This document shows positions 607 to 12,366 of a stretch of DNA of 56,313 nucleotides, piece by piece. The notes beneath the pieces are model-generated. The model was not told where the DNA came from. It made no database searches and saw only the letters and a program-made list of their open reading frames with translations. The DNA lies in contig CAUYUJ010000097.1 in the NCBI GenBank assembly GCA_963575745.1, positions 62,001 to 118,313 of the forward strand, written 5' to 3'. A program made the translations under genes and the position numbers. This DNA is from Prorocentrum cordatum. Taxonomy: Eukaryota. Position 1 is the stretch's first letter; each line of letters opens with the position of its first letter.

Positions 607-1410
607 ATGGCGGGCGCGACCGATGCGTCTGCCGCCCTCCTGCCGCTGGCGCCGCTGGCGCCGGCCGAGGGCGCCAGCGCGGCGCCGGCAGCTGTGGGGG
701 CAGATAAGGAGGACAGACGGAATGCTTCGAAGGTAGCCAGAGATTCCTCGACGGCTGGACCCAGTCCCAACGCAGCCAGCACGCCCAGGGGTACCAGACA
801 GCGGAAGGAGGGCGCCGACCAGAGGGACATCGCTACAGAGAAGGCTGACACAAAAAGCAAGACGGACATCGGCAAGAGCAAGAGCAAGAGCAAGAGCAAG
901 AGCAAGAGCAAGAGCAAGACAGACAAAAAAATCAAAAAGGCAGACAACACCAAAAAGGACAAGAAGGACAAACAAAACAAAAAAGACAAAAGGGACAAGA
1001 AATGCCATAAGCGGAGGGACTCTGACGAGCGGCCAGCAGGCCAGGCGGGGAAACATGCCTGCGTGGTTGGCACGGTGGCGAAGGAGGGCAAGCCCGTCGC
1101 TGGCGGCGCGGAGTATGAGGGTAGCACGGCACATCTGCAGATCAGGCGGGCGGGCACTGACGCTGAGGCCTCCGCTCGCAAGCTCACGGACATCCCCGCG
1201 TGGGCCAGGTTGTTCCGGGGCCGCGCGCCTGTGATCCACTCGGCCCGGCGCCCGTCGGCACCGAGCGGTGGCAGCCGCCAGGTTGCGGCATCCGCCGCAG
1301 CCGCGGCCCCCGCGCCAGCGCCGTTGCCGACGGAGTCGATGGCCGTCGACAGCGGGAAGGAGGCGCCCACCGACGCCGCGGCTCTCGCGGTGCAGGCCGC
1401 GGCCCCGCGC
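607..1410 (+). CDS. Probable exon of a low-complexity Ala/Lys-rich protein (KS/KKD repeats), function unknown
   Basis: ATG at 607 within ORF 106..2007, protein-like MAGATDASAALL... with a Lys/Asp-rich tract. The rest of that ORF is microsatellite or repeat, and the 3' end is uncertain. Confidence 0.3.
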
Positions 1411-1649
1411 CAGCGTTGGGAGGGGGGGCAGGGGTGCCGATGGGCCGATGGGGTGATCTCTGGTAGCGACGGGTGCGGGCGTTGCTGCTGTCGTTGTTGC
1501 TGGCGCTGTTGCTGTTGTTGTTACCGAAGGCGGTGTGGGGGGGAGGTAAACCTCCCGTGCAGGGGGTGGGGGAAGTTGGAAAAGGAAACGCGCTGGACCA
1601 CCTGCGCCCTCATGGGCCGCTGGGATGTCCGCCGAGCTCGTTCGGGCAT

Positions 1650-10200: not shown

Positions 10201-12366
10201 CGCATGAAGGACGTCCCGAGCGACCAGGTGGAGACCGCTGCGAGGGCCGTGGTGGCGGTTGGCCGCTGGGTCGGAGGGTCCGCGAAGGCGAATATCCTCC
10301 CCGCCTTCCTGCCCGATCCGCTCGACGAATGCTTCGACCCGATTCGGAAGTGGGTTGCGATGTTGAGCATCGGCATCAAGGTGGAGCTCGAGGGTGTGTT
10401 GACGCGCACTGCCACGGTGGAGAGCGTGAAGGAGTGGGTCGGCGAGGGCATCGGGTCGAGGCTTCCATGGTCGTTGTCGACCTCCTGTCCCGCCCTTCCA
10501 ATCCCCGCCCTCCTCCGCCGACCCTCCCCCCGCCCTCGCCTCCCTCAACGTTCCTCTTCCCCTCCCTTAGCTTTCCGTCGCCTGCCTCCTCCCCGCCTTC
10601 CCTGTCCTCGACCACCCCCCGCCACTTCTCCCGTTCGGCGTCCCTCCCTCCGCGGCAGGGATGTCATCCGGGTGTTCGTCGACATCTTCCAGGCGAGCCG
10701 TGACCACGTCTCCGCCGTCGCGCCGCAGAAGCCGTTCGACTTCCTCATGCAGGGGGTCGCCGTCATGGAGTGGGTCGTGAGCGCCGCGTGCATGGTGACC
10801 CGCGAGGGCGATGATCAGTACTCGGTCGAGTTCTTCAAGCGCATGGCCAAGGGTCTGAGGGACCACCTTGAGAAGCCGCTTCCCTCGGCTGAGGATTGCG
10901 AGCCTCGGCAACCGCATGAAGTCGAGTGGGCGAAGGACGCCACCGAGCAGTTCCTGTCGTCTCCCTTCATCTGCGGCGAGGGAGGAGCGAGCTGGGTCGG
11001 ACCAAGCAGGGAGGCGGGGGGGCCCCCCTCCTCCTCGCAGGACCCCCTCCCCCCCTTGCTCACTCCCTCCATCCTGCCCTGCATCTGCTCGCCCTTCCTC
11101 CTGGTTCACCCTCTGTCGCCCCTTCCCCCAGGGCCGTTGCTTTCTCGCTCTCCCCGAGGATACGCATCGAAAGTCGCTGGGGCGCTGGAGTCCTATTCGA
11201 AGCCTATCGTGGATCCACTTATCACGTTCCTGAAGACCGTGTTCGGCGAGAACAAGCTCGGCGACATCGACCTCGGGAGGGCGGGGGACGTGTCCGCGAT
11301 CTCGGTGGAGTTGTCGGCATTCTCGCCCGCGCTGTCGTGGGCGGAGGAGGCCGGGGACAAGGCCCTGAGCACGCAGCTCACATACTTGTACAATGCCGCG
11401 TCGCTCCTGGTCCACGTCATGAAGATGAAGCGCTTCGCGGATGTCACGTTCGCACCTGGCGCGGCCATGAAGGACACGAAGGTGACCGAGGAGACGCTCA
11501 AGATGGTGTGCGACGGCAGGGCCTCGTACAACGCCTTCGACACTTGCGTCTCCCTCGCGGGGGGCTCCGACCTCTTCGCCGACAACGGGGACCCCTATCA
11601 CTCCAAGGCCTTCCACTCGATCGTCGACTTCGAGCCGTTCAACAGGTCTATCCGGGCCTGCTTCGTCGCGGTGCAGGGGGCTTTCGGCGGCAGCTGGAGT
11701 TCGAACCTCGCCGCATTGCGGGGGGCCATCGAGGAGGGTTGCCCGAACTGGCAGTGGGCCAAGGACACTCTCCTGGACCACGTGGACTTGTGCGACGCGC
11801 TCTGCAAGAACGAGAAGCACAGCAGCCTCAGCCCCCTGGCCGCGGAGATCAAGAGGCAGGTGAAGTTGATCAAGCGCGCAGACCACTATCCATGCCTGCC
11901 ACCCCTGGTCGACCCGAAAGGCTTGAAGGACAGCGTGATCGCGGGCGATCTGGGCATCGAGACCGTCAGCTTCACTTTCGCCATCTACAAGTTGCTGAAA
12001 TCTTGGCCTGGATCGGTGCTGTCGAAGCCGGAGGCGGAGAAGCAGGTGATCGCATTGAAGAAAAGTCTGGAGCCTTCAAAAGTCCAGCTGTCGGACCAGA
12101 TTAACTTGGAGCTGAACCGCTGGGAGGACGGCACTCGCCTTGAGACGCCGTTCCAGCCGAGGGCGCCAGCGCCTCCTGCGGCCGCCGCGCCAGCGGCGGA
12201 GCCTCCCGCCGTCGAGCCCCCGCTTCCGCCTCCCGATGCCCCCCCGCCGCCGCCCGCGTCTTTGCCAGGCAGCTCCCCGGGCGCGTCTCAGCCCGTAGTG
12301 GGCTCGAAGCTCTCCCTGAAAGAGAGGATGAGGCTCTCCCTGAAGAAGAGCTCGGCGGCTGCGTAG
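7211..12366 (+). pseudogene. Large intron-containing hypothetical protein with CxxC...CxxC Zn-binding motif and AT-hook; one in-frame TAG
   Basis: ATG 7211, CRLC 7622-7633, TAG 7688-7690 with the same frame continuing at 7691, CGYC 7751-7762, KKRGRPPK 8561-8584. Probable introns at about 8890-9005, 9560-10175, 10450-10660 and 10980-11160. Stop at 12364-12366. Confidence 0.65.
9600..9905. repeat. (TCTG)n and (CT)n microsatellite inside an intron
   Basis: Direct reading. Confidence 0.95.

Follow-up and report, generated by a model that had tools for sequence, protein, structure and literature searches.

How can CG methylation be widespread in dinoflagellates when their relatives of the DNA methyltransferase DNMT5 have lost the motor? 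Canonical DNMT5 is reported to require its SNF2 ATPase for faithful maintenance methylation (PMC9998398), and most CG sites are reported to be methylated in dinoflagellates (PMC5890265). The locus that raises this question here lies in a 56,313-nucleotide (nt) stretch of the Prorocentrum cordatum genome (contig CAUYUJ010000097.1, positions 62,001 to 118,313 of the forward strand), the whole of which we call the window. In it, a gene encoding a stand-alone DNMT5-type methyltransferase is followed on the same strand by a large gene encoding an orphan protein, and the same two genes are found side by side in two metagenome loci. With a confidence only a little better than even, we read the pair as a conserved dinoflagellate two-gene module, not a mobile element, of which the window holds a recently disabled copy.

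The first gene of such a module would encode a stand-alone methyltransferase of the DNMT5 type that consists of catalytic and target-recognition parts only. The second, on the same strand and about 1.3 kb farther downstream, would encode an orphan protein with a Cys/His N-terminus of the zinc-binding type, an AT-hook and a long C-terminus. The two genes would have been passed on together for a long period. The large protein may be a partner that binds DNA or chromatin and directs or regulates the motor-less enzyme, and both genes may be read from one unidirectional gene array and processed into separate mRNAs. We infer joint action of the two proteins because their adjacency is conserved and because they co-diverge; for the motor-less enzyme, a co-diverging neighbor with DNA-binding features is a concrete candidate partner. 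DNMT5 without SNF2 is already known from dinoflagellates, and it is the conserved partner gene that appears to be new: in those parts of the literature on dinoflagellate DNMT5, DNA methylation and AT-hook methyltransferases that were searched, no report of one was found. A preliminary description of this locus had proposed a large self-methylating mobile element instead, for which we find no evidence.

Linkage and parallel divergence of the gene pair

In what follows, P0001-P0087 denote relatives or fragments of the proteins, L001 and L002 are metagenome loci, and X1-X3 are sequencing runs. The two loci were obtained by scanning metagenome contigs with a six-row methyltransferase alignment, which matched 90 stretches, two of them encoding relatives; both carry the pair. 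L001 (10,075 nt, 51 % G+C) has all of its open reading frames (ORFs) on one strand, in the order of an unrelated 511-amino-acid (aa) ORF, the methyltransferase (2172-3830, protein P0017), a 273-aa ORF and the large protein. The large protein is there contained in two frame-continuous ORFs, 5450-7396 and 7403-9520, split by two TAGs after a microsatellite, and the break between 7396 and 7403 is probably an intron. In L002 (3,619 nt, 55 % G+C), the contig ends within the large-protein gene: downstream of the methyltransferase (134-2071), only the part for the N-terminal domain (2877-3617) is present. The window is collinear with L001 across both genes. Counting the window, the pair stands in the same order and orientation in three of three loci; the preliminary description had called for a check of conserved linkage, and for the methyltransferase and the large protein such linkage is what we find. 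The spacer between the two genes consists of 1.3 kb of repeats in the window, contains the 273-aa ORF in L001 and measures 0.8 kb in L002. The 273-aa ORF (4262-5083 of L001) has an acidic middle and, close to its start, two C-x2-C pairs; it matches no family, and neither the window nor L002 contains a counterpart.

Judged by protein identity, the two genes have diverged in parallel. Between the window and L001, the methyltransferases are 31 % identical and the N-terminal domains of the large protein 33 %; between the window and L002, the corresponding values are 31 % and 30 %; and between L001 and L002, the identity is 41 % for either protein. A quick maximum-likelihood tree, confined to family members, was built from 65 rows (63 hits of at least 430 aa, P0001 and the window, with 88 shorter hits left out). 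It groups the window with P0006 and P0011 (support 97) and makes L001 and L002 sisters (support 98), and the window on the one hand and the L001+L002 pair on the other occupy separate starred subclades within a single 23-row clade (support 99), in one of the two halves of the family. By this tree the linkage is old, and it is documented in only two deep lineages.

The two proteins and the lesions in their genes

The methyltransferase of the window has to be read across two frames of the plus strand, 3776-5524 and the overlapping 5377-5925, and ends with a stop codon at 5923-5925. Its Met is placed at 4163 because P0087, a 122-aa eukprot fragment identical to the window, begins there. Single-sequence searches of Pfam, NCBIfam and PDB with both frames gave no match, PF00145 included; P0001, a relative of 559 aa, can be aligned with the one as well as with the other. 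A profile made from the window methyltransferase and P0001 was used in an exhaustive HMMER search of 1.84 billion representatives (clusters at 50 % identity), and recovered 687 of them at E<=1e-3, 324 at E<=1e-10 and 55 at E<=1e-30. Among the 150 matches listed, the relatives are 122-621 aa in size, and the closest of those listed is P0006, with 42 % identity over 373 residues. PF00145 is matched by 10 of 18 relatives at E<=0.01, and its gathering threshold is exceeded by five of the 18.

In a 34-row alignment of the family, the window protein has motifs I, IV (Pro-Cys, PCQ), VI and VIII (Arg-x-Arg) before the frame break and, past it in the next frame, motif X (GNA) and the Ser/Asp-rich tail typical of the family. 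All five of these cytosine-5 methyltransferase motifs (I, IV, VI, VIII and X) are therefore present, and at the nine columns that are invariant across the alignment the window row conforms in every one. Motif I starts about 90 residues past the Met; in relatives, 0-130 residues precede it. The intact enzyme is predicted to have about 580 residues, and its gene is intronless in all three loci. Among the family members, P0019 (457 aa) is listed under a "bacterium", as a hypothetical protein from a contig of 12.7 kb; in view of the other members, this contig is probably eukaryotic and was placed in a bacterial bin.

Which cytosine-5 methyltransferase does the family most resemble? Among 177,635 distinct PDB sequences, the best match of the family profile is DNMT5 of Cryptococcus neoformans (7r76_A, deposited as "DNA repair protein Rad8"; E 1.9e-22, 82.5 bits). 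The alignment covers chain residues 309-541, from motif I to motif VIII and including the region between motifs, and the next match is M.HhaI (E 7.9e-12). The fold was tested on P0006, the 42 % identical relative, and not on the broken window protein. Its AlphaFold model, computed with the family alignment, has a pLDDT of 91.4 and a pTM of 0.90. In a Foldseek search of 350,542 chains with this model, the first four ranks are taken by DNMT5 entries (E 1e-14 to 3e-13, TMq 0.58-0.62), with alignments that span about 500 columns, and M.HhaI (7e-9) and ZMET2 come next at about 1e-8. In total, 152 PDB chains match the model at E<=0.001, those listed being cytosine methyltransferases, and the neighbors of P0006 in the ESM Atlas include C5-methylase clusters of about 530-550 aa. 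By these profile and model comparisons, the enzyme is DNMT5-like among solved structures, a set from which no DNMT6 structure surfaced in either search. The preliminary description had called the enzyme DNMT5-like and stand-alone, and both terms agree with the best profile and fold matches and with the size of the listed relatives. It had also seen no SNF2 domain after the methyltransferase; indeed, Pfam detects no SNF2_N, Helicase_C, RING or chromodomain in the methyltransferase, and no family at all on any downstream frame.

The DNMT5 of C. neoformans (PDB 7r76, 7r77, 7r78, 7t02), together with algal DNMT5a/b, is thus the known system that matches best in profile and fold, but the differences are considerable. 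Canonical DNMT5 has a chromodomain, a RING finger and an SNF2 ATPase, none of which is found in the window protein or in the gene downstream of it. Motif IV reads P-C in the window enzyme and S-C in the aligned stretch of C. neoformans DNMT5, and the predicted length of about 580 residues contrasts with the 2,348 residues of the solved DNMT5 chain sequence. Closer to home, Dnmt5 paralogues without extra domains have been described in dinoflagellates (PMC5890265), and the loss of the SNF2 domain in this group is already published (PMC12344493, PMC9998398). The window enzyme resembles those stand-alone paralogues in being related to DNMT5, in lacking companion domains and in having many paralogues. 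However, the paralogues are described as exon-rich, expressed genes, unlike the intronless gene of our three loci, and the passages on Dnmt5 in these accounts mention no conserved neighbor gene (PMC5890265, PMC12344493). DNMT5c is likewise dinoflagellate-specific, DNMT5-related and SNF2-less, but its N-terminus is described as extended by about 1,000 residues that contain no known domain (PMC9998398). With fewer than 100 residues before motif I, the window enzyme lacks the long N-terminal region that marks DNMT5c, and the large orphan protein is encoded by a separate downstream gene, unlike that extension (PMC9998398).

The large gene, also on the plus strand, has its first Met at 7211 and its stop codon at 12364-12366, and shows collinear tblastx homology to L001 over 7583-12006. 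The predicted protein has about 1,350-1,400 residues. A public protein, P0002 (isoform P0004), entered as "unnamed protein product, partial [Prorocentrum cordatum]" and encoded on a 198-kb contig, is 99 % identical to its C-terminal part. The model of P0002/P0004 splices out about 10455-10658 and about 10985-11158, two introns that bear out the original view of the gene as intron-bearing, and begins exactly after the AG at 10176, matching the 3' end of a 597-nt candidate intron. Another candidate, 8899-9002, would account for a frame change near 8900-9010; it is flanked by homology to L001, and among 18 candidates that keep the frame open it is the only one with a GT donor.

The N-terminal domain of the large protein has 32 columns that are invariant among the window, L001 and L002. 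It contains two Cys pairs (C-x2-C, at 7622-7633 and 7751-7762) about 40 residues apart, followed by several conserved His, Trp and Gly positions. The name of CxxC protein given to it at first has to be withdrawn, for these are separate C-x2-C pairs and the Pfam family zf-CXXC (PF02008, two CGxCxxC clusters) gives no match at E<=0.1. AT-hooks are defined by an Arg-Gly-Arg-Pro core between basic residues. The AT-hook named in the preliminary description is there as an RGRP core at 8567-8578, present also at the aligned place in L001, and is followed by a short, conserved, helical-looking stretch. The C-terminal region, of about 650 residues, is 24.5 % identical to that of L001 (E 9e-36). Word-based searches with the large protein found only the copy from the same species or L001's own protein; low-complexity words probably swamped these searches, and the family is not thereby shown to be small.

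Each of the two genes carries one lesion, as had been noticed at the outset. In the methyltransferase gene it is a perfect 17-nt tandem repeat, with copies at 5404-5420 and 5421-5437, that falls between motif VIII and motifs IX-X. Because 17 is not a multiple of three, the duplication shifts the frame, and removal of one copy joins the two frames. Contigs of 151 nt from X2 and X3, covering 5364-5531 and 5303-5470, differ from the window by a 17-letter gap and by nothing else; an undisrupted version of the methyltransferase exists in nature. In the large gene the lesion is an in-frame TAG at 7688-7690, within the conserved N-terminal domain. It is a nonsense change and not an intron, because homology in the same frame to the open frames of L001 and L002 is found on both sides of it. 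An assembly error in the source of the window is a possible alternative cause of either lesion. The proposal that inactivation was recent fits the conservation of nine of nine invariant columns, the duplication-free version in X2 and X3, and the 99 % identical copy. The window copy is a recently disabled allele or paralogue, with undisrupted versions elsewhere.

Functional module, inherited neighbors, mobile element or virus

Several points weigh against reading the pair as a conserved functional module. The pair rests on three loci only, and since L001 and L002 stem from a single metagenome project and group as sisters, these amount to two deep lineages. Most family members are on contigs of about 2 kb that carry the methyltransferase alone and are uninformative on neighbors. 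The same parallel divergence would also be expected of a unit copied or moved en bloc. As for the large protein, its AT-hook is a motif of only four residues, and no part of it has a credible match in Pfam, PHROGs, PDB profiles or the ESM Atlas; the best that PDB profile searches with the N- and C-terminal alignments returned is histone H1.1, at E 0.32. The AlphaFold model of the N-terminal domain, computed from 4 rows, is poor (pLDDT 54.6, pTM 0.32).

Might the adjacency have no functional meaning? The two genes could be ancestral neighbors that were copied by segmental or tandem duplication and have not yet been separated. Dinoflagellate genes are usually co-oriented, and both unidirectional arrays and frequent block duplication are characteristic of these genomes, which counts in favor of such an explanation. 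So does the restriction of the linkage to two deep lineages. Set against this is the great age of the loci, with about 31 % protein identity and a tree path of about 4 changes per site. Over that time the spacers and the upstream ORFs have all changed, yet order, orientation and proximity of the pair have been kept, and we consider it unlikely that inherited adjacency is the whole explanation.

The preliminary description took the genes for possible cargo of a large mobile element. Alternatively, the pair could be the core of an undescribed, low-copy mobile or block-duplicating element, in which the orphan protein is the mobilizing enzyme and the methyltransferase marks the DNA of that element. 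In a more specific version, the orphan would be a mobilizing enzyme of a new type, in which an N-terminus that binds zinc and an AT-hook are combined with a catalytic C-terminus of a novel kind; the element would be a new one of low copy number, and its insertion in the window would be dead. Transposases often have a zinc-binding domain at the N-terminus. The pair is linked and co-diverged in three of three loci, a second copy in the same species is 99 % identical at the protein level, and the methyltransferase gene is intronless throughout, all of which would suit an element. Methyltransferases are also known to be carried by dinoflagellate retroelements (PMC5890265).

Nevertheless, searches of the window and L001 with Pfam, NCBIfam and PHROGs found no transposase, integrase, recombinase or reverse transcriptase, and no mobilizing family on any frame of the window unit or L001, a result that leaves room for an enzyme of a new type. 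Repeat searches likewise revealed no inverted or direct terminal repeats at the edges of the unit; apart from matches of low complexity, they gave a single 75-nt piece of dispersed repeat. In having neither transposase nor termini, the locus is as it was first described. Depth figures are contig depths summed by bin in X1, the run that best covers the region. Over the gene bins, the depth is 0-10, like that of single-copy DNA, compared with 375-12,094 over true repeats nearby. At least one further copy, 99 % identical, is on record, which might represent the second allele or a haplotig. The window has nothing that corresponds to the ORFs around the L001 pair, and L001 begins and ends in microsatellite sequence. 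That L001 recurs in different sources at a length of about 10.1 kb is most readily put down to assemblies that break at identical points. The large gene, with at least two annotated introns, is host-like. With neither a mobilizing enzyme nor shared ends found, with low depth over the genes and with flanks that differ from those of L001, the unit does not bear out the idea of cargo in a large mobile element. We hold a low-copy element built around the pair to be quite unlikely, and a new mobilizing enzyme with a dead insertion in the window to be very unlikely. What the evidence most resembles is host genes in conserved synteny, the outcome that the preliminary description itself had named as speaking against its proposal.

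Two kinds of trace that mobility might have left were considered and rejected. The joints 189->12510, 190->12507, 2022->6386 and 6267->12593, taken as candidate empty sites, are 20-39 letters in GAG-rich arrays or a dispersed repeat, some of them at repeat-level depth. For retroposition, a relict spliced leader was sought in the window and in L001, with no match at <=3 mismatches. A published system with a similar layout is SymbioLINE-Dnmt of Symbiodinium, in which a methyltransferase ORF without introns precedes another large ORF of the same orientation (PMC5890265). There, however, the second ORF is described as a reverse transcriptase and the copies as numbering hundreds (PMC5890265), whereas the second gene of the window matches no reverse-transcriptase family, has introns and lies at low depth.

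Highly improbable, finally, is an origin from an endogenized large DNA virus or virus-like element with its own methyltransferase: orphan methyltransferases in protists are sometimes viral (PMC12344493), one ESM Atlas neighbor cluster of P0006 comes from Nucleocytoviricota (TM 0.58) and the partner has no cellular homologues among the searches made, but scans of IMG/VR turned up relatives of neither gene, genes for capsid, polymerase or packaging are missing from the surroundings (the sole PHROG match being the methyltransferase), the closest solved relative is a eukaryotic DNMT5 and not a viral or bacterial enzyme, and the introns of the large gene are of the spliceosomal type. A scan of prokaryote genomes likewise gave no relatives.

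Coordinates, repeats and neighboring sequence

The features of the region are collected in Table 1. G+C makes up about 62 % of the window, in which microsatellites are abundant and no N occurs; neither an Rfam nor a tRNA scan returned a match. Of the two runs that supplied the duplication-free contigs, X2 is labelled "metagenome" and X3 "freshwater metagenome". Pieces of the window region occur in both at about 99-100 % identity, which points to the same or a very close Prorocentrum in those samples.

Table 1. Features annotated in the first part of the window, numbered from its first letter
Feature	Position	Strand	Basis
Lys-rich open frame	607..1450	+	translation; gene status unverified, 3' limit approximate
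Stand-alone DNMT5-type cytosine-5 methyltransferase gene, intronless, frameshifted	4163..5925	+	alignment, profile, fold
17-nt tandem duplication (2 x 17)	5404..5437	+	sequence and X2/X3 contigs
Spacer of simple and high-copy repeats (GTC/CGT, GAG, CAT arrays)	6004..7337	no strand	repeats and depth
Large orphan-protein gene, intron-bearing, with nonsense codon	7211..12366	+	tblastx to L001, alignments, public model
Conserved N-terminal domain	7604..8290	+	alignment of three loci
In-frame TAG	7688..7690	+	sequence; same-frame homology on both sides
AT-hook core RGRP	8567..8578	+	also in L001
Candidate GT-AG intron, 104 nt	8899..9002	+	predicted; splice-candidate enumeration
Candidate GT-AG intron, 597 nt, with (TCTC)n array	9580..10176	+	predicted; 5' end one of six candidates
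Intron, 204 nt, GT-AG	10455..10658	+	spliced out in public model of 99 % copy
Intron, about 174 nt, apparently GA-AG	10985..11158	+	public model; limits read by eye
High-copy dispersed repeat directly after large gene	12007..12673	no strand	depth 2020 in X1

Upstream of the pair, the preliminary description placed a further gene, for a Lys-rich protein. An open frame with an ATG at 607 is indeed present, but it matches no Pfam family, has no counterpart in L001 and enters a high-copy repeat. Of the three or four co-oriented genes originally counted, two are verified on the plus strand, and the higher count is not borne out. In X1, the repeats around the genes reach depths of 577 (1335-2001), 1816 and 749 (6004-7337) and 2020 (12007-12673). 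The 75-nt piece of dispersed repeat is shared between 1551-1624 and 12569-12643 at 84 % identity.

Beyond the pair, 13341-15341 is a very-high-copy repeat, with an X1 depth of up to 12,094 (bin 14675-15341) and with many positions that consistently differ from the window; it probably belongs to one of the genome's main families of dispersed repeats. Across 16000-28000, strand asymmetry flips near 22 kb, the AT skew going from about -0.30 to +0.34 and the GC skew from +0.2 to -0.2, and long ORFs lie at 17313-20789 on the minus strand and at 22601-27990 on the plus strand. This segment may consist of two diverged elements placed head to head. LINE-like ORFs were suspected at 17-28 kb, but no Pfam family was matched and no inverted repeat was found between the halves, and the candidate was dropped. 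Further downstream, 54383-55779 is a degenerate (AGGCTG)n array of 1.4 kb, with about 250 copies and long spurious ORFs on the minus strand. A direct repeat of 1,174 nt (34493-35666 and 36954-38127, 99.4 % identity) spans the start of a 513-aa ORF at 35132-36673, which matches no Pfam family, and a truncated second copy of it at 37593-38279; it looks like a recent tandem duplication.

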